Shown here: one piece after another, positions 4,314 to 23,812 of the stretch
Position numbering within the stretch: the stretch's first letter is position 1
How the letters are laid out: every line of letters begins with the position of its first letter
Virus record (IMG/VR): IMGVR_UViG_3300032173_000009
Location: 1-52,270 of that record
DNA: 52,270 bases
Reading direction: 5' to 3' (one strand)
Origin: a virus
Lineage: Duplodnaviria > Caudoviricetes
The notes under the pieces: generated by a model
Seen by the model: only the letters and a program-made list of their open reading frames with translations
What the model was told of the DNA's origin: nothing
Database searches by the model: none
Position numbers and translations under genes: made by a program

Positions 4314-4748
4314 CGGTCCGTCATTGGAGAACGGGAGCTAAGTGACGAGCGGTTTGCTGGTGGAGAACGGGTGGTCGATGGCGAGTGGCGTCATGGTGGA
4401 GAATGGTCTAGCCTTGGCGAGCGGCGACTTCATGGAGGACAGCGGATTGGTGGCGAGTGGATGAATGCTGGAGAACGAGGCGCCGGTGGCGAGCGGTGAG
4501 AAAATGGAGAACGGTGTCAAGCTGGCGAGCGGTCGCTGAGTGGAGAACCAGATAATATTGGCAAGCGGAAGCGCGCTGAAGAATGGAATGAATGTGGCGA
4601 GCGGTGAATAGTTGGAGAACGGGCGGGGTCTGGTGAGCGACGAAGCGGTGGAGAACGGGAGCTTCATGGCGAGCGGTGGCCGTTTGGAGAACGGTACAGA
4701 GATGGTGAGCGGAGGCTCTCTGAAGAATGGCAAACGGTTGGTGAGTTA
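4307..4748 (+). repeat. TIGR-like dual-repeat guide array 2 (12 units of 36 nt)
   Basis: TGGAGAACGG-like repeats every 36 nt from 4325 to 4721, alternating with TGGCGAGCGG-like repeats from 4343 to 4739; 8-nt variable spacers. Confidence 0.9.
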
Positions 4749-4749
4749 G

Positions 4750-7188
4750 ATGATCTGCTCCCGCTGTCTCCTAGGCAAAACGACCACTCCTGTCCCTGGT
4801 GAGGGACCTGTGCCCTGCGACCTGCTGCTTGTGGGTGAGGCACCAGGTGCGGTGGAGGAAAGAGAGCTGAGGCCGTTCGTAGGGGACGCAGGGCGTGTTC
4901 TCAACGGCCTGCTCAAGGACGTGGGCCTCAGTCGGGAGCAGGTCCGCATTACCAATATCGTCCACTGCCGACCACCTGGGAACAGGAAGCCGGAGGACGA
5001 GGAGCTGCTAGCCTGCGCTGTCCACATGGCAGCCGAGCTAGGTCAGGTCAAGCCCAAGCTCGTCGTGGCACTAGGGGGCACGGCAGCTAAGGCTCTGACG
5101 GGGAAGGAGAAGATCGGGGCGGGTCGAGGGCGCGTCCTTGCGCTCAAACCTGAGTACCGTAGCTCTATCCCAGTAGTCGTCACCTACCACCCAGCCTACT
5201 ACCTACACCGGAACGGTGACAAGAGCATCCTGGACGGCATAGCTACGGACTTCAGGTTTGCGCTGAAGGTAGCCGATGCTCTTGTCACCGTTCCGGTGAA
5301 GGGCGCTGCAGCCAAGCAAGACATCCTAGTGACTGAGAATGAGGTAGAGATCGCCTCCGCTCTCCGTCAGCTTGCGTCCTGCGACCTGCTGGCCTGCGAC
5401 TGCGAGTGGGAAGTCCTGCCCAACGGCCGCTTCCAGCCCTGGAGTAGGTGTGAGGGCAAGGCGCCCAGGTTAGTCAGCATCGCCTTGGCTGGTAGGCTAG
5501 CAGACGGTCCACTAGCTGTAGCCGTCAAAGCCGATAGCAAGGCATTCCCGGTCGTCGTCAAGATACTGAGCAAAGTACCGACGATCTACCACAATGCGCC
5601 GGCGGACTTGGCCTGGCTCCTGTCCTTGGGTGCCAAGCCTATACTAGCTGGCGACACCTTGCTCCTAGCCTCGCTGCTAAACTTGCAGCACTCACTTGGC
5701 CTTAAGGTCCTAGCCGCCGTGCTCACGGAAGTACCAGCAGGCTGGGACACTGAGGTGCAGGAGGGCATCCTGGGCACGCTCCCCGCCACCAAAGCTGCTT
5801 GGGATGCCCTCCTCAAGTATAACGGGCAGGATGCCCTCGCCACCCTCTTACTCAACGAGCGCCTACTGCAGATGGTGAGGGAGCAGCAGCGTGAGGCGGT
5901 TCTTCCCCTCTACCGGAAGCTCCTGGGAGCGAGCTATGCCTTGGTCAAAGCCGCCCTAAGAGGTGCGCCCCTTGATGGGAAGATGCTCTCTGAGCTGAAA
6001 GAGCAAGCAGACTACCGGATCGTCTCACTACGAAAAGCAGTTGCAGCGGAGTTTGGCATGCCTGGGTTCGTCAAGAAGGAGGCACACTCCTCCGACCTCG
6101 TGGCTGCTGAGCTTGAGCATCGTGGAGTGAAGCTGCCCAAGACGCCAAAGCTGCAGCGCGCCTCGCTCAACGCCGCCGCTCTCCTGCCTTATGCTAGCCG
6201 GCCCGACGTAAAGCCACTCATAGCGCTAGCCAAGGTAGTGAAGCTGGAGAACACCTACCTTGGCCCCTGGACGGAGCTGCTCAAGGAGCAGGGAGAGGCA
6301 CGGCTCCATACTGGGTATAAGTTGTGGGTTGCTAGGACGGGGCGCTCTTCGACGGAGGGCGAGGCAGGAGGCACTATCCAGCAGTTCCCACGTGACTCCC
6401 AAATGCGCCGCCTCGTTCGCGCACCCGACGGCTACGTTATAGTCTCTGCTGACCAGTCGCAGGTTGAGCTACGAATCGCTGCCTGGCTAGCTGACGAGAC
6501 GACGATGAAGCGCTTCTTCCGGGAAGGCATCGACATTCACACTGCTACTGCCGCCTGGCTGAAGGCCAGCTCTAGAGGCATCCCCCTAATCTCCTACCTG
6601 GCTCACCAGCGGGAGTATATGGAGGAGGTGACGAAAGAGGAGAGGCAGGGAGCTAAGCCTATCAACTTCGGCCTACTCTACGGTGGGCAAGAGGAGGTGC
6701 TAGTTGGTGTGGCTCTGAGGGACTATGGTATTACTCTGACCAAAGAGCAGGCTACGGTGGCAAAGAGCGGCTTCTTCGAGCTCTACCCGAAGCTAGTGGA
6801 CTGGCACAAGTCGGCCTGGCACTGGGTCAACAAGGGAGCTGTGCCTACCCCACTGGGGCGCTGGCGCAACCTGCCCTCAGAGGACGGAGAGGACGGGCTG
6901 GCTAAGCAGAGGAAGGCGATCAACACTCCAGTCCAGGCTACGGCCTCAGACCTCTGCCTCATTTCTCTGGCTGAGATCGACAGGCTGCTGGACGGGCTGG
7001 ACTCGTATATTATAGGGTTCGTCCACGACTCAGTACTGTTGGAAGCCAGCGAGAGGCACTTGGCCCAGGTCGTCGAAGTAGTCAGGCGCTGCATGGAGAA
7101 CCCAGACCTCAGCGAGTTTGGGCTCACCCTTCCAGTGCCCTTGGTAGCGGACATAAAGGTCGGGAAAACATGGGGAGATTGTGCCTGA
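4750..7188 (+). CDS. family A DNA polymerase with N-terminal family-4 uracil-DNA-glycosylase-like domain and 3'-5' exonuclease
   Basis: CxxC, GEAPG, PFVGDAG, CRPPGNRKP, TYHP (UDG); DCE, HNAPAD, YNGQDA (exo); DQSQVELR, RQGAKPINFGLLYG, VHDS (pol motifs A, B, C). Confidence 0.93.
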   Translation: MICSRCLLGKTTTPVPGEGPVPCDLLLVGEAPGAVEERELRPFVGDAGRVLNGLLKDVGLSREQVRITNIVHCRPPGNRKPEDEELLACAVHMAAELGQVKPKLVVALGGTAAKALTGKEKIGAGRGRVLALKPEYRSSIPVVVTYHPAYYLHRNGDKSILDGIATDFRFALKVADALVTVPVKGAAAKQDILVTENEVEIASALRQLASCDLLACDCEWEVLPNGRFQPWSRCEGKAPRLVSIALAGRLADGPLAVAVKADSKAFPVVVKILSKVPTIYHNAPADLAWLLSLGAKPILAGDTLLLASLLNLQHSLGLKVLAAVLTEVPAGWDTEVQEGILGTLPATKAAWDALLKYNGQDALATLLLNERLLQMVREQQREAVLPLYRKLLGASYALVKAALRGAPLDGKMLSELKEQADYRIVSLRKAVAAEFGMPGFVKKEAHSSDLVAAELEHRGVKLPKTPKLQRASLNAAALLPYASRPDVKPLIALAKVVKLENTYLGPWTELLKEQGEARLHTGYKLWVARTGRSSTEGEAGGTIQQFPRDSQMRRLVRAPDGYVIVSADQSQVELRIAAWLADETTMKRFFREGIDIHTATAAWLKASSRGIPLISYLAHQREYMEEVTKEERQGAKPINFGLLYGGQEEVLVGVALRDYGITLTKEQATVAKSGFFELYPKLVDWHKSAWHWVNKGAVPTPLGRWRNLPSEDGEDGLAKQRKAINTPVQATASDLCLISLAEIDRLLDGLDSYIIGFVHDSVLLEASERHLAQVVEVVRRCMENPDLSEFGLTLPVPLVADIKVGKTWGDCA

Positions 7189-7260: not shown

Positions 7261-8304
7261 TTGAATACATCCCTCTCAGCAATAGGCTCGTGGCGTGAGT
7301 GCCAGCAGAAGTACTGGTACCGGTATGTCGAAGGGCTAAAGCCCAAGCTAGAGCGCCCAGCCCCCCTCCTAGGCTCCATCCTACACCGACTCCTAGAGCG
7401 CTTCTACCTATTCATTCCTGGTGACCCAGACGACGCTCTGAGGCAAGCTATCGAGTTCACCTGCGGAGAGTTCCAGCCAAAGATAGACGGCCTCGTCTTT
7501 GCTGCCCAGACTGCTGGGGAGGATCAGCTCGGCCTGGACTTGCAGGACCTCCTGCCAAGAGCACTGCGCATCTTCGAGCGCTACTTCCTCGTCAGAGGCA
7601 GACCCGACTTCGAGCAGCTCTGGCCAGTACTGGTTGAGTACCGCTACACGCTGGAACTCGACCGAGGACTCCAGCTAGTTGGCATTGCCGACCTGGTAGC
7701 TGAGCAGGACGGACAGCGTCTCTTGTGGGAGCACAAGACGACTGGGTCCGTGCCTGGGCAAGGCAGAAGGCTCCGAGACTTGCAGACCACGCTAATGAGT
7801 GCAGCTCTGGAAGAGCTCGGTCATGGGCCGATCAACGGTGTGGTCTGGAACTACATAAGGACGAAGGAGCCAACGGTCCCGGCCTTGCTCAAGAACGGCA
7901 TGCTCACTACTCGGGCAGACCTAGACTCTACTTGGGCGGTCTACCAAGCGGAGATACAGAAGCACGGCCTGAGGGAAGAAGACTACCTGCCGGTCAAGGA
8001 GAGACTGGAAGGCAGGGAGGAGGCAGTCTTCTTCCCTCGGGTCGTCCTTCCGCTCATGCAGGCTGAGCATATCCTACTAAGGGACTTTATTGCCACGGCT
8101 CGCACCGTCCAAGCGATCCGTGAGTCTGGTGGGAACTACATTCCGGTTAGGAGCGTGGGCTTCGGCTGTGACTTCTGCGAGTATAACAAGCTGTGCGAAG
8201 CAGTGATCTTGGGAGGAGACGAGGAGGAAGTGGTTCAGCGTCTATTCGTCAGGAAGGAAAGCAAGGAGGTGGCAAGTGACAACGGCGACACGAGTAGCCC
8301 CTAG
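7261..8304 (+). CDS. PD-(D/E)XK exonuclease (RecB/Cas4-like)
   Basis: S-S-I--W--C--KYWY-Y, GSILH, GIADLV...WEHKT, C-terminal CDFCEYNKLC. Confidence 0.88.
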   Translation: MNTSLSAIGSWRECQQKYWYRYVEGLKPKLERPAPLLGSILHRLLERFYLFIPGDPDDALRQAIEFTCGEFQPKIDGLVFAAQTAGEDQLGLDLQDLLPRALRIFERYFLVRGRPDFEQLWPVLVEYRYTLELDRGLQLVGIADLVAEQDGQRLLWEHKTTGSVPGQGRRLRDLQTTLMSAALEELGHGPINGVVWNYIRTKEPTVPALLKNGMLTTRADLDSTWAVYQAEIQKHGLREEDYLPVKERLEGREEAVFFPRVVLPLMQAEHILLRDFIATARTVQAIRESGGNYIPVRSVGFGCDFCEYNKLCEAVILGGDEEEVVQRLFVRKESKEVASDNGDTSSP

Positions 8305-15358: not shown

Positions 15359-15543
15359 GGAGGAGAAAAGTGAGCCCGCTACGTCGCTACAAGCCAGTGC
15401 TTTGCGAGGAGTGTGAGCAACCACTATCACACCACCAGCCTAGCAAGGAGTGTCCCACAATCTACGACATCATCAAGCAATTCTGTGGGAAGGAGTATGC
15501 CGACCAAGTCGTTGAGAAAGGGCTGCTAAGGGTGTCATGCTAG
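15355..15543 (+). CDS. small Cys/His-rich hypothetical protein
   Basis: ATGA overlap with queD; CEEC...H...C. Confidence 0.55.
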   Translation: MRRRKVSPLRRYKPVLCEECEQPLSHHQPSKECPTIYDIIKQFCGKEYADQVVEKGLLRVSC

Positions 15544-16298
15544 AAGTGGTGGAATACTACATAGCGCCCCAGGGGGAAGGCCCTAACCTTGGCCGCTCCT
15601 CCCTGTTCCTGCGACTTGCCCTCTGCAACCTGCGTTGCTCCTGGTGCGACTCTAAGTTCACCTGGAGCAAGAATAACCCAGGCTATAACCAGTTTCAGTT
15701 CTACGAGCCGGACGAGCTAGTAGGCGTGCTCGTACAGTACGTCAGGGAGCAGCCCGTTGTCCCTCGTGGTTTAGTCGTGACAGGTGGTGAGCCCTTGCTA
15801 TACCAGCGGGAGCTGCCCTACGTGATTGGCAAGTACTGGAGCACCCTGGACCAGCTCAGTTTGGTTGAGCTTGTGGCAGACGCTGAGGTCGAGACAAACG
15901 GCACAATAGTGCCGTCCCAGGGTATGCTAGAGCTTTGCGACTTCAACGTCTCGCCTAAGCTGGCTACAGCAGGAAACGCCAAAGTGCCTCTGAAGGTACT
16001 CTGGAACGAAGCGGCAACCAAGGCCTTCTTGAAGAACGGTGCGACCTTTAAGCTTGTAGTCCGCCCTGACGATGAAGTAGTCCTAATGGCCTACCTCAAG
16101 TTCCTCCGGGAAGTCGCAAATGAGCTTGAGCTGAAGTGGGCGTCAGTCCTAGACAGCATTTACCTCATGCCTGAGGCCACGACTCAGGACGAGCTCGTGG
16201 CTAGACAGGGCTACGTTATTGAGCTAGCTCAGAAACTGGGCGTCAGAGTGACGACGAGGCTGCAAGTCCTAGCCTTTGGAAAGGAGCGCCGACGGTGA
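15537..16298 (+). CDS. queE: 7-carboxy-7-deazaguanine synthase (radical SAM)
   Basis: [36 protein letters not shown]. Confidence 0.93.
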
Positions 16299-17221
16299 GA
16301 AAGTTAAGCATGGAGGAAGTTCAGCACCTGGCCGTGCTCTGCGCTAGACAGATCGCGGACGAGGTAGCTCCGCACCCGTTGCTAGTTGCTATCCCACGGG
16401 GTGGTATACCTGCGGCAGCACTCATTGCTGCCGCATCGTCTCCCTCGCCAGTTATCGTCTCTTCTACTGAGCCTGTCCGGTTGAGAGCGCCACGGGTCTT
16501 GGTAGACGACATTAGGGTGACGGGCCGTACGGTTGAGCTAGCTCGTGAGAAGTGGGACCCAGACATGGTGGTGACGCTAGTCGCCAAGGGTACAGGTGCA
16601 AGAGACGATGCCTACGCCGCGCTGGAGGTACCAGAGGGAGAATGGGTGCAGTTTCCCTGGGAGGTCGCCGACCAGGACGCTGGCACACCCGAGGACGCAG
16701 TGCGCCGGCTGATAGAGTGGCTAGGTGACGACCCAAACCGCGAAGACCTCCTGGACACTCCTGCCCGGGTGCTGCGCTTCCTGTCGGAGTTCCAGGCTCA
16801 GGCTGGAGCTGCAGTCAACGTTAGGTGCTTCCGCGCTGACGGCATAGACGACCTAATGGTCGTCTCAGACATTCCCCTCTACTCCTTATGCGAGCACCAC
16901 CTCATGCCCTACCTTGGCACCTGCCACGTTGGCTACTTGCCCTCAGGCCAAGTACTAGGCCTTTCCAAGGTTGCTCGCCTCGTCGTGCAGCAAGCGTCGA
17001 GGCTCACCATTCAGGAGCGGCTGACAAGGCAGATAGCAGCGGCAGTGTCTGAGGCCTGCGGCTCACCAAGCGTCGCAGTCGTAGTCAAGGCCGTCCATAC
17101 CTGCATGGTTATGCGTGGGGTCAAGGCAGTGGGCTCAGAGACTGTGACTTCAGCCATGCTCGGCTACTTCCGTGAGCAGGCAAGCCTCCGAGCGGAGTTT
17201 CTACGGCTAGTGGGGGCTTGA
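16295..17221 (+). CDS. folE: phosphoribosyltransferase-GTP cyclohydrolase I fusion
   Basis: N-terminal [25 protein letters not shown] (type I PRTase); C-terminal [33 protein letters not shown] (FolE). Confidence 0.92.
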
Positions 17222-18393: not shown

Positions 18394-18561
18394 TGGCCCA
18401 AGACTGCCAGGGCCTATAACACCGTGGCTTGTAGGTCTGGCGCTATGGCGCAAACCACATCGTCAGACGCCCGCTGAGGGCGGGCGGAAGGAGGTCCCGA
18501 TGGGCGGAATTAGCAGGACTGAGAGCCGCTGAGGTGGCTAGGCCCAGGTCTGGCTCAAGGC

Positions 18562-19458
18562 GTGATCCTGTTCATACTGGCGACCAGCCTGGGCATTGTA
18601 TTGACGAAAGGAATTGCCTATGACGGTTTACATTCTGGCAAGCCTAGTCGGAGCGAGTACGGCCTGGCTGATAGCGAAAGCCTGGCAGCGGTTGAGGAAC
18701 GGTTGCAGCCCACGGAACCCATACCCAAAGTTCAAAAGGAGGTAGGCGATGGATTCTTTTACCAGGGAAGGGCTAACTGTGCTGATCAAGGATATTTACC
18801 GGAGGGTGTACCGGTTACTGGACCAGCTGGACTCTCTTGCGCCGTCCTCGGCAGGCGAGGAGATGGAATCGAGCCCATTAGAGGTACGGCTGTACAACTT
18901 GGAGCACCAGATCGAGGACTTATACAATCGGATGGGCAACCTGGAGCTCAGGGTGACGGCATTGGAGGCTGGTCCGCAATCGCGACCCACTATGGCAGCG
19001 CCTATGAGGGACAGTTACTCGGATGCGGTGCCATGCGTGTACCCAGCGCCCTGCGACTGCCCGAGATGTATCAGCTTGGGCAGGGAAGTGCCACCGATCT
19101 CTGTCCCGGTGCCGGACTCGCGGCCGGAGTCTACCGAAGCTGTGACCCTCTCATCGTCGCCGTCGGGCCAGCCCACTACGCCGACGTTCCATGTGGAACC
19201 GAGGTGCGGGTGTGTGCCCGTGGACGATCCCCATCAACCGAACATTCATCCGCACGTAATCCCGACAATAGTGCCGTTCGGCTTCGAGATTCACTGCCCG
19301 TTCAACTGCGGTGCGTTGTGGGCTATCGTGCAGATAGCTGCCCCGGCTGCTCCAGCCAGCCCCTCGGAGAGTACATCGACCTAAGTGAGGCTGGGCTGTA
19401 CTACCTGTGCGGGGGCGAATGCTCGGTGCTGGAGGCGACGGTGGAGGTGCTGCCTTGA
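18562..19458 (+). CDS. secreted/membrane protein with RlpA/expansin-like double-psi beta-barrel domain
   Basis: Hydrophobic N-terminus; ATHYG...GCG...IVAV...PCGTEVRV...DSCPGC...IDLSEAG. Confidence 0.65.
   Translation: MILFILATSLGIVLTKGIAYDGLHSGKPSRSEYGLADSESLAAVEERLQPTEPIPKVQKEVGDGFFYQGRANCADQGYLPEGVPVTGPAGLSCAVLGRRGDGIEPIRGTAVQLGAPDRGLIQSDGQPGAQGDGIGGWSAIATHYGSAYEGQLLGCGAMRVPSALRLPEMYQLGQGSATDLCPGAGLAAGVYRSCDPLIVAVGPAHYADVPCGTEVRVCARGRSPSTEHSSARNPDNSAVRLRDSLPVQLRCVVGYRADSCPGCSSQPLGEYIDLSEAGLYYLCGGECSVLEATVEVLP
18620..18745 (+). CDS. small membrane peptide (41 aa), nested in +1 frame
   Basis: GAAAGGA SD; MTVYILASLVGASTAWLIAKAWQRLRNG... with basic tail. Confidence 0.4.
   Translation: MTVYILASLVGASTAWLIAKAWQRLRNGCSPRNPYPKFKRR
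18749..19384 (+). CDS. coiled-coil and Cys-rich protein, nested in +1 frame
   Basis: AAGGAGGT SD; heptad LEVRLYNLEHQIEDLYNRMGNLELRVTALE; CDCPRC and CPFNCG. Confidence 0.55.
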   Translation: MDSFTREGLTVLIKDIYRRVYRLLDQLDSLAPSSAGEEMESSPLEVRLYNLEHQIEDLYNRMGNLELRVTALEAGPQSRPTMAAPMRDSYSDAVPCVYPAPCDCPRCISLGREVPPISVPVPDSRPESTEAVTLSSSPSGQPTTPTFHVEPRCGCVPVDDPHQPNIHPHVIPTIVPFGFEIHCPFNCGALWAIVQIAAPAAPASPSESTST

Positions 19459-19518
19459 GCTGGGGCGAGCCGTGACCAACAATTTTTAAAAACTTTTTGA
19501 AAATTCCTCGAAAACCAC

Positions 19519-19547
19519 TTGACAAGTGTTTAATCACCCCTTATTAT
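19519..19547 (+). promoter_or_regulatory. strong sigma70-type promoter with inverted operator and AT-rich upstream element
   Basis: TTGACA-17 bp-TATTAT; TGTTTAATCA at 19527-19536; A/T tracts upstream. Confidence 0.8.
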
Positions 19548-19567
19548 GAATGTAGGAGGTGACCGAA

Positions 19568-19765
19568 ATGGAGACAGCAACGGGCAGCAAGTGCGAGGCA
19601 AGCCACGAGTATAACGGCTGGCGGGGCCTGGGTCGCTGGACTGTCTACCAAATAGGGGAGCGGCGCTATACGGTCTGCGCCCACCAGGAGGAGCATGGTT
19701 ATTGCGGGGCACTCATCGACGTGACCGATCTGCCGCAAGTGGTCATCTGCTGCGGCCAACACTAA
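19568..19765 (+). CDS. small Cys/His-rich hypothetical protein
   Basis: AGGAGGT SD then ATG 19568. Confidence 0.65.
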   Translation: METATGSKCEASHEYNGWRGLGRWTVYQIGERRYTVCAHQEEHGYCGALIDVTDLPQVVICCGQH

Positions 19766-19810
19766 TGACGAGTCCCAGCGAGGACGAAACCCGAAAGAAG
19801 GAGGAGGACA

Positions 19811-19972
19811 ATGGAGACGACCAGTGAGCTGAATGCGCAGCAGATAAGCAGGATCAACAAGCTGCTGGCCCGGATCGCCCGGCTAGAGAAGCTTGGAGAT
19901 GACAAGACCGCTGCTCAGTGGCAGCAGCTTGACGACGCCAGGGTACAACTGAGAGTCGTGCGCGGGTACTAG
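19811..19972 (+). CDS. small helical hypothetical protein (53 aa)
   Basis: GGAGGAGG SD; METTSELNAQQISRINKLLARIARLE... Confidence 0.65.
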   Translation: METTSELNAQQISRINKLLARIARLEKLGDDKTAAQWQQLDDARVQLRVVRGY

Positions 19973-19976
19973 GAAG

Positions 19977-20039
19977 GTCGAAACGAGCCTTCGGGCTCGT
20001 CCAGCGAGAATGGCTGCTCGCTGCTGATGAGACAGGCCA
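19977..20039 (+). ncRNA. type II hammerhead ribozyme
   Basis: GTC-GAAA, stem III CGAGCC-TTCG-GGCTCG, TC cleavage site (after 20001), stem I CAGCGAG-AATGGCTG-CTCGCTG, CTGATGA, GAC; loop I TGGCT can pair with 3' GGCCA. Confidence 0.9.
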
Positions 20040-20063
20040 CAAGGAAGAAGGAGGAGCCAGGAA

Positions 20064-20372
20064 ATGAAGCGGGAAGAGTTGAAGGATGTGTCTAAGGTTG
20101 AGCGAGACCTAGCAAGCTTCCGTGAGTGGAGGCTCAAGGCCGATGCTCAGCAGGTCGCGGACCGGTTGGTGAAAGACGCCGAGTCGTTGGCACAGCACCT
20201 GCTGCAAGTAGCAGAGACTGTCAGGCGTGGCAGGATGCCGAACGGGTTGGGTGAGGTTCAGAGCATGGGCAGCCGCATCGATGTGCTCTGTGCTCAGCTC
20301 GTCCAGGCGCGGGAGACCCTTATTGAGTTCGACGCTGTGACAGAGGGCAAGTACATTCTAGAGGAGTCCTAG
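20064..20372 (+). CDS. hypothetical protein
   Basis: AAGGAGGAG SD, helical 102-aa ORF. Confidence 0.7.
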   Translation: MKREELKDVSKVERDLASFREWRLKADAQQVADRLVKDAESLAQHLLQVAETVRRGRMPNGLGEVQSMGSRIDVLCAQLVQARETLIEFDAVTEGKYILEES

Positions 20373-20394
20373 GCAGCAAGAAGGAGGAAGCTTT

Positions 20395-21060
20395 ATGAGG
20401 AGAGAAAGGTATTGGGTCTGCTGGACGTGCAAGCAGATCTGGCATCGGCACAAGGGTGAGCCTAGGAAGTCTTGCCACAAGTGCCACGAGCCTATGGTGG
20501 CGGCCCGCAAGTACCCAATGGCCCTCCGGAAGCAGGTCCAGCGTGAGCGGGAGAGGCAAAGCAAAGAGCGAGCACGGCTGGAGAAGAAGCACAGCGTCTG
20601 CCGGACGGCCTTTGGGAGTCGGCTGGTAGTCTCCAAAGAGACCAAGGCTGCCTGGAAGGCGTTGGTGCAGGCCAAGCAGCACCGGTCGTTTCTCAAGAGG
20701 GCCAACGCCTTCGTAGAGGCTCTGCGGGAGGACATCTGGTCCTGCCCCCACTACCACGGCCGCACCGCAGAGCCTCGGGACTGCAAGTGCTCCGGCGGTG
20801 GTGTGGTCGAAGCCCCAGTAGTCGTGCTCACGGAGGGAGGGTCGCATATCCTTGGCACCTACAATAGGACAATCATGCGAGGCAAGTACATCGAGATCGC
20901 CTGGGGCCAGGGGGACCGCCTAGCGACGCTGATCCACGAGTGTGTCCACTACATCGACGACATGAGCAAAGCCGAGGGTGTCAAAGGTTGTGGCAGCCAC
21001 ACGAGGTCGTTCCTGGCCAGGGAGAAAGACCTGAGCCACCAGTTGCGGTACAGGCTGTAG
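20395..21060 (+). CDS. zinc-finger plus SprT-like HExxH metalloprotease-domain protein
   Basis: CWTC...CHKC; TLIHECVH...HTRSF. Confidence 0.7.
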   Translation: MRRERYWVCWTCKQIWHRHKGEPRKSCHKCHEPMVAARKYPMALRKQVQRERERQSKERARLEKKHSVCRTAFGSRLVVSKETKAAWKALVQAKQHRSFLKRANAFVEALREDIWSCPHYHGRTAEPRDCKCSGGGVVEAPVVVLTEGGSHILGTYNRTIMRGKYIEIAWGQGDRLATLIHECVHYIDDMSKAEGVKGCGSHTRSFLAREKDLSHQLRYRL

Positions 21061-21078
21061 AGGGGAGGAGATGACCTA

Positions 21079-21168
21079 GTGCGCTGGGATACGGTCCTGA
21101 TTATCCTGATCCTGGGCTACTTCGCAGCCATGATCCTGGACGCTTTCGTCGAGGGGAGGCTACCTTAG
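21079..21168 (+). CDS. 29-aa single-TM peptide
   Basis: GGAGGAG SD; MRWDTVLIILILGYFAAMILDAFVEGRLP. Confidence 0.45.
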   Translation: MRWDTVLIILILGYFAAMILDAFVEGRLP

Positions 21169-21204
21169 AGCCCAGTGACCCGGTATTGCGGCAGCAAGCC
21201 CAAC

Positions 21205-21233
21205 TTGACAGGGCTAGTTTTTTGCTATATGTT
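21205..21233 (+). promoter_or_regulatory. candidate promoter of the structural operon
   Basis: TTGACA-17 bp-TATGTT upstream of the first structural gene. Confidence 0.5.
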
Positions 21234-21251
21234 GCTGTACGAGGATGGCAA

Positions 21252-21755
21252 GTGCCTGAGACCCTGTCGGTGAAGCTTGAAGGCATCCCTGACCTCTTGA
21301 AGCGTCTGGACGTAGCGAAGTATAAGCGCGAGATCGCACGGGGACTCCTCAGAGGTGGCACCCACCTCGAAGCAGCCATCAAGCGGCGCACTCCCGTCGT
21401 TACTGGTCGCCTCCGCTCCTCCTGGACCACCAGGGCCTCCGCTAGTGGGCTGACAGTCACTGTTGGCACCAACGTCGTCTATGCTCCGATGGTGGAGTAT
21501 GGCACCAAGGCCCACGACATCTACCCCAAGGTCAAGCAGGCTCTAGCCTGGCCCATTGCCGGGAAGTCTGCTGCTGGCCTGGGACGTGGACCTCAGGGTA
21601 CGCTAAAGGGTCAAGGCGCTCTCATCGTCAGGAAGTATGTCCATCACCCAGGTACCAAGGGGCGGCATATGGCTGAGCGGGCTATTCAGGAAGAAAGCTC
21701 AACTGTCGTGGGAATGATTAGGGAGAGACTGGAGGCACTCCTTGCCGGACGGTGA
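21252..21755 (+). CDS. HK97 gp10-like neck/tail completion protein
   Basis: TPVVTGRLRSSW, VGTNVVYAPMVEYGT, VHHPGTKG; GTG 21252 after GAGGA. Confidence 0.82.
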   Translation: MPETLSVKLEGIPDLLKRLDVAKYKREIARGLLRGGTHLEAAIKRRTPVVTGRLRSSWTTRASASGLTVTVGTNVVYAPMVEYGTKAHDIYPKVKQALAWPIAGKSAAGLGRGPQGTLKGQGALIVRKYVHHPGTKGRHMAERAIQEESSTVVGMIRERLEALLAGR

Positions 21756-22251
21756 CGGGCACTCGCCCTATCTGCCTCGACCGCCAGTGGCCTCGAAAGT
21801 CATCAAGCAGAGGTTGACTAGGCAGCACATTACCGCCCTCCTAATGATGGCCGACGGTAGGCCTGACGCTGAGGTGGCGGCCGCAACTGGCTTTACCACG
21901 ACTACCATCACTACCTTCCGCCGGCGGCCAGACGTCCAGGAGTTCCTGTGGCAGATGGGGCAGTTCTACTTGGCTGCTGGCGAGTATGACCTCAAGCGGG
22001 GCTTGAAGTCAGTTATTGAGTCCTTCCGGAAGGTGGCCACTGGCGAGGCCCGCCCACTCGAGGGACAGGTAGCTGCTATCCTCCACTACCTCAACCGAGC
22101 GGGGCTCCTAGACAAGAGCCACGAAGGTGAGGCACCAAGCAGGCCCGCAGTCTTCGTCGATGCCCGTAGTGTACAGGTGACGGATGCCGAGCTCGACGTC
22201 CTCCGGGACATTCTCATTAGCTCAGAGAAGGCTCTTCCGAGGGGCAGCTAG
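21742..22251 (+). CDS. terminase small subunit (putative)
   Basis: N-terminal HTH-like segment; immediately upstream of the large subunit. Confidence 0.6.
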   Translation: MPDGDGHSPYLPRPPVASKVIKQRLTRQHITALLMMADGRPDAEVAAATGFTTTTITTFRRRPDVQEFLWQMGQFYLAAGEYDLKRGLKSVIESFRKVATGEARPLEGQVAAILHYLNRAGLLDKSHEGEAPSRPAVFVDARSVQVTDAELDVLRDILISSEKALPRGS

Positions 22252-23812
22252 GATAGGTACGGACCTGTTCCAGCTTGAGTACCGAGGCATCCGCCCCTAT
22301 GCCTGTCAGTCCCGGTGGGCGAAGCGATTGGACAACCCCAACATCCTCTACCAAGCCGACTTTGAGCCCCGCGACCATGGCAAGACTGAGCTCTTCTGCA
22401 TCTCCTACCCCCTGAGGCGCATCTGCGAGGACCCTAACGTCCGCATCCTCATCGTCCAGAAGACGGCCTCTGAAGCTGAGAAGACCGTGGGCGTTATCAG
22501 GACGGAGATCGAGTCCAACTTAGATATGCGGGCCTGGTACCGCCAGCACTGGCTAGCTACCGTGGGCTACGACGACATCTGCAACTCGAGTGGCTACTAT
22601 GAGGGGCAGAGCGCCTGGCGGTCAGACTTGTTCTACTGCAAGCGTACCCGGGTGGGCAAGGACCCGACGGTCGAAGGCGTTGGTGTGCTAGGCGCTATCA
22701 CGGGAGGTCACTACGACGTCATCATCTTGGACGACATCGAAGACGACGAGAATACTAGGACGGAGGCGCGCCGGCAGCACATTATCGACTGGTTCACTGG
22801 CACCATCCTCCAGCTGCGGGAGCCTCATACCAAGGTCATCGTCGTGGGTACGTTCAAGTGCGCTTCGGGCGACCTTTACGAGTACGTCCGCAGCAACCCA
22901 CTCTTCTCAACGAACATCGAGTCAGCTATCGTCTCTCCAGCGCTGGAAGACATTAGTTTTGAACCTGTCTATAACGAGGACGGCCTCGTCGTTGATGTCA
23001 AGAACGTCCAACCTGAGGTTGAGGTGCTGTGCCCTAAGAAGTGGAGCATAGAGCAGCTCATCATGGACTACCTGGTGTCGGGCTCAGTGATGTTCCGCCG
23101 TGAGAAGATGAATGACATTGGCGCTTTCAAGGAGGCCATCTTCCGGCGCAACTGGCTCCAGTTCTACGACTACTTGCCGGAGGTGAACTACAAGGTACAG
23201 GTCTGGGACACAGCGGCCAAAGAGGGTGAGCAGCACAGCTACTCAGTAGGTGCTACCTGGGGGCTGGGCAGGCGTGGCCTCTACGTTATCGACGTCTGGC
23301 GTCAGCAGGTTGAGTATACTGACCTCAGGGCTGCTGTCATTGGTCAGTTCAACCTCCACAAGCCAGACTTGATACTCGTGGAGGATGCCTCCTCAGGACA
23401 GGTCTTGGTGCAAGAGCTGAGGCGGGGCACTAACCTGCCCATTGTGCCCGTGCAGACTAAGGGCAGAGACAAGCTAGCCAGGGCGCAGGTCGTGACACCA
23501 CTCATGGAGTCGGGGCTCATCTACCTTCCCCAAGGAGCAGCCTGGGTCGAAGCTTGGATACTGGAGCATGTGGACTTTCCCAATGGTGCCCACGATGACC
23601 AAGTTGACACGACCAGCATGGCTGTCGCACACCTGAAGCCAATGCTTGGCGAGGGAGTGGCTAGGGGGGTGGGGCTGCCGGAGCAGGTGATGCAGCCGAG
23701 CCGGTTGGCTGCATTAGGCCCGTCGTCAGTTAGGGCGACTAGGAGCGTTGTAGCAGGGTTGAGGACTGGCCCTACTTGGGAGGGTGACGATGGTTCTAGA
23801 GACAGATTCTAA
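22184..23812 (+). CDS. terminase large subunit
   Basis: PRDHGKT Walker A, ITGGHYDVIILDD Walker B, WDTA, VEDASSG, DKLARA, FPNGAHDDQVD; start uncertain. Confidence 0.93.
   Translation: MPSSTSSGTFSLAQRRLFRGAARIGTDLFQLEYRGIRPYACQSRWAKRLDNPNILYQADFEPRDHGKTELFCISYPLRRICEDPNVRILIVQKTASEAEKTVGVIRTEIESNLDMRAWYRQHWLATVGYDDICNSSGYYEGQSAWRSDLFYCKRTRVGKDPTVEGVGVLGAITGGHYDVIILDDIEDDENTRTEARRQHIIDWFTGTILQLREPHTKVIVVGTFKCASGDLYEYVRSNPLFSTNIESAIVSPALEDISFEPVYNEDGLVVDVKNVQPEVEVLCPKKWSIEQLIMDYLVSGSVMFRREKMNDIGAFKEAIFRRNWLQFYDYLPEVNYKVQVWDTAAKEGEQHSYSVGATWGLGRRGLYVIDVWRQQVEYTDLRAAVIGQFNLHKPDLILVEDASSGQVLVQELRRGTNLPIVPVQTKGRDKLARAQVVTPLMESGLIYLPQGAAWVEAWILEHVDFPNGAHDDQVDTTSMAVAHLKPMLGEGVARGVGLPEQVMQPSRLAALGPSSVRATRSVVAGLRTGPTWEGDDGSRDRF

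Follow-up and report, generated by a model that had tools for sequence, protein, structure and literature searches.

Genomic context of the ribozyme locus

The sequence analyzed here, called the window throughout, is an IMG/VR phage record (IMGVR_UViG_3300032173_000009) covered over its full 52,270 nt; it is linear and is estimated to be 80% complete. All annotated genes of the window lie on the + strand, the GC content of the genome is 59%, and the base composition around the site of interest is flat. This site, at positions 19977 to 20039, holds a predicted type II hammerhead ribozyme, and its surroundings are as follows.

Upstream of the ribozyme, + strand: SNF2-type helicase, DUF932, primase-polymerase, and DNA methyltransferase genes (from family searches)
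Upstream of the ribozyme, + strand: family A DNA polymerase fused to a UDG domain; HTH regulator
Upstream of the ribozyme, + strand: 7-deazaguanine-type module (QueE-like gene and GTP cyclohydrolase I)
19519–19547, + strand: the window's best sigma70-like promoter match, TTGACA-17-TATTAT (11 of 12 positions; consensus match only)
19811–19972, + strand: upstream 53-aa ORF, with stop codon TAG at 19970–19972
19977–20039, + strand: predicted ribozyme
20064–20372, + strand: downstream 102-aa ORF, with ATG at 20064 and Shine-Dalgarno (SD) sequence GGAGGAG at 20050–20056
Downstream of the ribozyme, + strand, in order: 102-aa ORF, 221-aa ORF, HK97 gp10-like neck protein
Further downstream, + strand, in order: weak small-terminase match, large terminase (22184–23812), Mu-type portal

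Even at E ≤ 1, the ORFs on either side of the ribozyme were assigned to no family in Pfam or PHROG. The sole match of the 102-aa protein among 5.8 billion proteins is the protein itself, no relatives of it were found in a search of viral contigs, and comparison of positions 18500 to 22500 with GenBank phages (blastn) returned no match; the host phage lineage is one without close sampled relatives. The initial annotation had placed the ribozyme between "small early genes": both neighbors are indeed small, but the word "early" is not supported, since these ORFs are without family and the same-strand run goes on to include genes for neck, terminase, and portal proteins, with the large terminase gene situated 2.1 kb downstream of the ribozyme. 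A tRNA search found none, and a search for sequencing runs containing positions 19400 to 20700 listed a single run, of DNA and perhaps the sample from which the window derives, and no RNA run.

Several genes and repeats in other parts of the window have features of their own. The QueE-like radical SAM gene and the GTP cyclohydrolase I gene are adjacent (15537–17221), the product of the latter bearing an extra N-terminal region of ~125 aa, and their adjacency points to synthesis of a 7-deazaguanine DNA modification by the phage. The family A DNA polymerase (4750–7188) has its UDG-superfamily domain at the N terminus. Within the PD-(D/E)XK nuclease gene (7261–8304) lies a 30-nt inverted repeat (7959–8050; 87% complementary, arms 32 nt apart) with sub-threshold matches to Rfam miRNA families on both strands. 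Two genes downstream of the ribozyme, the 221-aa ORF (20395–21060) matches nothing in Pfam or PHROG; its product is rich in Cys and His at the N terminus and carries, near the C terminus, an HECVH motif that we take to resemble a metalloprotease signature.

The promoter-like site lies in an AT-rich intergenic gap (19459–19568), ~430 to 450 nt upstream of the ribozyme, and on the strength of its agreement with the consensus it is the probable start of the ribozyme-carrying transcript. Just after it, an AGGAGG (19554–19559) is followed by an ATG at 19568, so the 68-aa ORF listed from the GTG at 19559 more likely starts at 19568. Between 17000 and 23000, the + strand has no predicted intrinsic terminator, which, in conjunction with the promoter match, puts the ribozyme close to the start of a probable transcription unit running toward the packaging and head genes. 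From the + strand orientation of the genes and the upstream promoter-like site, we infer that the ribozyme is transcribed in the sense direction.

Anatomy of the ribozyme

The elements of the ribozyme are listed below in order of their first nucleotide; hammerhead positions (C3 through H17) are numbered according to the established convention.

19977–19979, + strand: 5′ strand of stem II, G11.3 U11.2 C11.1 (GUC), pairing with 20031–20033
19980–19982, + strand: core G12 A13 A14 (from direct reading and the Rfam alignment)
19983–20000, + strand: stem III hairpin, 19983–19989 with 19994–20000 (7 Watson-Crick pairs, UUCG loop)
20001, + strand: C17, with predicted cleavage at 20001/20002 (from its position in the Rfam alignment and hammerhead chemistry)
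20002–20023, + strand: stem I hairpin of 22 nt, 20002–20008 with 20017–20023 (7 Watson-Crick pairs, 8-nt loop)
20011–20015, + strand: pseudoknot, loop I strand (UGGCU)
20024–20030, + strand: core C3 U4 G5 A6 U7 G8 A9 (CUGAUGA)
20031–20033, + strand: 3′ strand of stem II, G10.1 A10.2 C10.3 (GAC), including the G10.1–C11.1 pair
20035–20039, + strand: pseudoknot, 3′ tail strand (GGCCA), after a 1-nt linker (A20034)

[quoted passage not shown] Stem III begins with the A15.1–U16.1 pair (A19983–U20000), and folded alone, the two hairpins have predicted energies of −11.6 kcal/mol (stem III) and −10.3 kcal/mol (stem I). The pseudoknot comprises 5 bp: four Watson-Crick pairs and one U-G wobble. In all three stems, the pairs adjacent to the core are canonical (G20031–C19979, C20002–G20023, and A19983–U20000), in keeping with the rule given in PMC3088659 (this paper, PMC6155905, PMC6765202, and PMC8782182 are cited here and below from excerpts of their text).

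The initial annotation had described a complete type II hammerhead with a full core, perfect stems I and III, and pairing between loop I and the 3′ tail, all of which we recover at the positions that it gave. It had also noted that the element starts just past a stop codon and ends just short of an SD sequence, and the distances agree: the TAG of the 53-aa ORF ends 4 nt 5′ of the ribozyme, and 10 nt separate the end of the pseudoknot from the SD sequence of the 102-aa ORF (30 nt from stem II to its start codon). We considered stem III as an intrinsic terminator and rejected this role, as the hairpin is followed by UCC and not by a run of U.

Family assignment and tests against chance

The Rfam search for Hammerhead_II (RF02276) that the initial annotation had recommended returned a match to positions 19976–20041 with a score of 53.2 bits, where the gathering score is 37, and an E value of 3.2e-8 (calculated for the whole 52-kb window, both strands, and 4,227 families). 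The match is on the + strand only and covers model positions 1 to 66 of 66. At E ≤ 1, the Rfam scan of the whole window found no second ribozyme, its other matches being miRNA-like ones on the hairpin near position 8000.

For comparison, a narrow pattern (the GUC/GAC stem II plus the core) was found in at least 134 stretches of IMG/VR viral contigs, which yield at least 130 distinct ribozyme sequences. When 20 of these loci were scanned with Rfam, they gave 30 Hammerhead_II matches above the cut-off, alongside which the score of our ribozyme would rank 4th of 31; 6 of the 20 loci had no such match, and pattern and model therefore overlap only in part.

With a score 16 bits over the curated cut-off and the E value given above, the element is hard to view as a chance look-alike or as a decayed, inactive relic, and we consider such an origin highly improbable. 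Shuffling puts the expected number of bare core patterns at 0.02 per window (a match appeared in 2 of 100 shuffles), there are no substitutions in the core and no mispairs adjoining it, and the pseudoknot is in the register of the family. The case for a look-alike or relic would draw on those 6 pattern-matching loci without a match of Rfam grade, which demonstrate that the pattern alone is no proof, as well as on the plain minimum free energy (MFE) fold of positions 19970–20045, which is unremarkable (z score of −1.37). When the ribozyme's own loop and tail are shuffled, a pseudoknot of 5 bp or more arises in 244 of 10,000 cases (2.4%).

Folding predictions were compared for the element by itself and in its wider context. 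For the 63-nt element, the catalytic fold has an energy of −24.4 kcal/mol versus −24.6 kcal/mol for the MFE fold, with stems I and III common to both. The pseudoknot, which falls outside the scoring of the folding program, would add approximately −5.8 kcal/mol, and with this contribution counted, the catalytic fold is predicted to be at least as good as the MFE fold. In 130 to 200 nt of context, a competing fold reaches −40.4 kcal/mol versus −34.3 kcal/mol with the hammerhead pairs enforced, a comparison made before the pseudoknot (again approximately −5.8 kcal/mol) is added; with it included, the two folds are predicted to be about equal.

Covariation with other phage hammerheads

Among the pattern matches listed, pseudoknots of at least 5 bp occur in 72% of 116 well-formed members, versus 24% when loops and tails are randomly re-paired, and the length of stem-loop I is 22 to 24 nt in 114 of 130 members (22 nt in this ribozyme). 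From the same matches, 18 phage hammerheads of identical geometry could be aligned without gaps with the ribozyme of the window. In this alignment, 95.7% of pair cells are paired, versus 32 to 40% when the partners are slid by 1 to 3 columns, and the observed covariation score was reached in none of 500 shuffles. In stem III, both partners vary at 5 of the 7 pairs. For the pseudoknot helix, which keeps the same register in all sequences, the paired fraction is 94.7%, and both partners vary at 4 of the 5 pairs. A minimum of 5 bp in stems I and III was a condition for inclusion of the 18 members, such that the pairing of these two stems in the alignment is partly selected for; the pseudoknot was not a criterion of selection. 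Covariation of this kind, in the stems as well as in the pseudoknot, implies that selection has acted on the folded RNA and not on the DNA sequence alone.

Every Hammerhead_II feature that lends itself to testing in silico is present in this ribozyme. At the level of sequence, the Rfam score, the intact core and stems, and the in-register covariation with the 18 phage hammerheads all support its identity as a type II hammerhead as well as the predicted site of cleavage after C20001.

The survey also revealed dense arrays of type II hammerheads of Rfam grade: locus L023 has 5 copies in ~2.2 kb and locus L068 has 6 in ~2.4 kb, with 4 copies in L021 and 3 in L006. The copies in all four of these arrays each sit between short ORFs.

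Distribution among terminase relatives

Relatives of the large terminase (TerL) were obtained from 20 loci (2 viral contigs, 16 metagenome contigs, and 2 genome contigs); they are distant, one showing 23% identity and the others 45 to 64%. No hammerhead reaches the Rfam gathering score in any of the 20 loci (4 of which have little or no upstream DNA), and the whole records behind loci L002 and L003 contain none at E ≤ 1. The genes within positions 15.5 to 25.2 kb of the window were compared by tblastn with 18 of the 20 loci (L154 and L155 being left out), and TerL was the only one to match. The position of the ribozyme is not conserved among the TerL relatives, and this patchiness agrees with the excerpted accounts of PMC3088659, according to which the identities of genes flanking type II hammerheads are not constant, and of PMC6155905.

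In one of these loci, L155, a RAGATH-28 RNA (RF03052) was detected at 4334–4415 with 50.6 bits against a cut-off of 45.3. It is located ~600 nt upstream of the TerL homologue with 23% identity, on a contig whose title names an uncultured Fusobacterium MAG.

Such a distribution raises the alternative that the hammerhead marks the edge of an acquired cassette (composed of ribozyme, SD sequence, and ORFan), with its core serving as a recombination joint and its cleavage mattering little. We regard this as quite unlikely: the covariation in the stems and the pseudoknot is strong, and the flat base composition around the site likewise speaks against an acquired segment, even though the element is absent from the TerL relatives, the 102-aa protein has no relative in the protein search, and the flanking ORFs are without family. 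Further observations that would suit a cassette are that, among the matches listed, no gene of the 15.5- to 25.2-kb interval recurs within 2 kb of other hammerheads; that other phage contigs have arrays between short genes (those of L023 and L068); and that small, nonconserved flanking ORFs are noted in the excerpted text of a review (PMC6155905).

Packing of hammerheads against stop codons

We examined the position of stop codons at 136 hammerhead sites among the matches listed (L004 to L137), considering upstream open frames of at least 50 codons. At 99 of the 136 sites (73%), the upstream stop falls −1 to +4 nt from the first base of the ribozyme, versus 3% for positions drawn at random from these loci. 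Of the 99 abutting stops, 55 are TAG, compared with 58 of 329 stops (18%) elsewhere in the same loci, a threefold enrichment, and the G of TAG doubles as the first base (G) of stem II at 47 sites. On the 3′ side, the median distance from stem II to the next start codon is 24 nt; for gaps of the same loci that lack a hammerhead, crude ORF calling gives a median length of 15 nt. The ribozyme of the window, with its TAG at +4, falls in the abutting group without overlapping the stop, and its placement 4 nt past a stop and 30 nt before a start matches the pattern of the family.

Genome compaction explains the abutment, in that the ribozyme fills all but a normal SD-bearing gap, and the bias toward TAG is left unaccounted for. 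A requirement of the ribozyme for an A 5′ of stem II was tried as the cause of this bias and rejected: among the matches listed, an A occupies this position at only 33 to 46% of sites whose stop lies elsewhere than −1 or 0. The excerpted text of the cited hammerhead literature holds no statement of a stop-codon abutment with TAG bias, which may already be in print.

A functional fusion to the stop codon would make the ribozyme conditional, in that a terminating or queued ribosome on the stop of the upstream ORF would block stem II and the core and so gate folding, with cleavage occurring only when the ORF is unoccupied; the element would then be a translation-sensing switch and not a constitutive cutter. 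Given the footprint of a ribosome at a terminating stop codon, one stalled at the TAG at 19970–19972 would cover approximately 12 nt beyond it, a stretch that includes the 5′ strand of stem II along with G12 through A14. We consider this unlikely. The start of the ribozyme 4 nt past the stop, the excess of abutting stops over random positions, and the TAG bias with its common G, which a need for A before stem II does not explain, are all in line with gating; yet the abutment is accounted for by compaction, hammerhead-free gaps among the matches listed being about as long as what is left 3′ of the pseudoknot, and the site in the window is at +4, lacking the overlap with the stop. Were a functional stop fusion to prove true, hammerheads would be translation-sensing switches of mRNA processing, of which this +4 site would be one instance.

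Proposed processing of a polycistronic mRNA

Hammerhead ribozymes undergo Mg2+-assisted self-cleavage 3′ of position 17, leaving a 2′,3′-cyclic phosphate on one product and a 5′-OH on the other. The reading that we favor, with a probability of about 80%, is that an uncultivated tailed phage carries here, on its coding strand, a genuine type II self-cleaving hammerhead that processes a polycistronic mRNA. The sequence of events would be as follows. An mRNA that probably begins at the promoter-like site, near position 19550, would carry the ribozyme; once its ~63 nt have been made, stems III and I would form, and the pseudoknot would dock stem I against the 3-bp stem II, whereupon the RNA would cut itself between C20001 and C20002.

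The predicted upstream product comprises two small ORFs and would have the stem III hairpin and a 2′,3′-cyclic phosphate at its 3′ terminus; it keeps its stop codon and so would not be a non-stop mRNA. The downstream product would include the 102-aa ORF and probably the genes that follow toward the terminase, with a 5′-OH on the first base of stem I and the stem I hairpin and pseudoknot at its 5′ end, 10 nt before the SD sequence. The 3-bp stem II is the sole bridge between the two products, and their separation is expected, which would render cleavage effectively irreversible. Each capped by a hairpin, the two parts of the mRNA would then decay and be translated independently of each other, and the likely effect of this intercistronic processing is to let the fate of the two small leader ORFs diverge from that of the long message downstream. 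Unmasking of the SD sequence by cleavage was examined as a further effect and rejected, the predicted unpaired probability over positions 20047–20066 being 0.56 in the uncleaved RNA and 0.61 in the 3′ product.

The locus, with a lone ribozyme ~450 nt past the start of a probable operon running to packaging and structural genes, may offer a clean test case: a point mutation in the core could therefore reveal the role of a phage hammerhead in gene expression.

Comparison with known systems

Type II hammerheads, their pseudoknot, and their phage and prophage context were published in 2011, in a paper (PMC3088659) whose excerpted text reports that pseudoknotted members are active, with an activity that depends on the pseudoknot, and proposes that hammerheads process long phage transcripts. 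According to the excerpts of a 2017 review (PMC6155905), prokaryotic hammerheads flank small, nonconserved ORFs and their role is still open; those of a 2019 review (PMC6765202) likewise treat what hammerheads do in bacteria and phages as an open matter and processing as unproven. More recently, in vivo cleavage in Desulfovibrio vulgaris was detected by cyPhyRNA-seq for three type II hammerheads, of which at least one adjoins phage genes (2021; PMC8782182, excerpted text), showing that predicted type II motifs do cleave in cells. A search of the literature for papers joining hammerhead or self-cleaving ribozymes with Caudoviricetes found none. The sole hammerhead in the Racr paper (PMC10651486) is an engineered one, and the divergent hammerhead candidates in a 2026 preprint on noncoding clusters are different from the type II class.

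The ribozyme of the window resembles RF02276 and the hammerheads of Perreault et al. (2011; PMC3088659, as excerpted) in its topology, core, short stem II, and intergenic phage setting, as well as in having a pseudoknot of at least 4 bp directly after stem II, as do most type II members, but not all. It is unlike the cases described in the excerpted text of Perreault et al. in being present as a single copy, and not as one of several flanking a gene. Two differences are of smaller scale: stem II has 3 bp (GUC/GAC) here, whereas the Rfam consensus of RF02276 has 2 annotated pairs, and the U-G wobble in the pseudoknot is the only one at that column among the 19 sequences. No family-defining feature of RF02276 differs in this ribozyme.

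With the D. vulgaris hammerheads, as presented in the excerpts of PMC8782182, it shares the Rfam class and, for at least one locus, the setting among phage genes; those hammerheads, however, reside on the chromosome of a cultivated bacterium and come with evidence from RNA ends, whereas the present one belongs to an uncultivated phage contig known from its sequence. There is likeness in detail to the array members of L023, L068, and L021, with which it has in common the GUC/GAC stem II, the stop–ribozyme–SD packing, and the constraint on the length of stem-loop I, although those loci bear 4 to 6 copies of Rfam grade within a few kilobases, versus one in this 52-kb contig, and no flanking genes are held in common. 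Overall, the ribozyme is an ordinary new example of a class that is very common in phages and has thousands of members.
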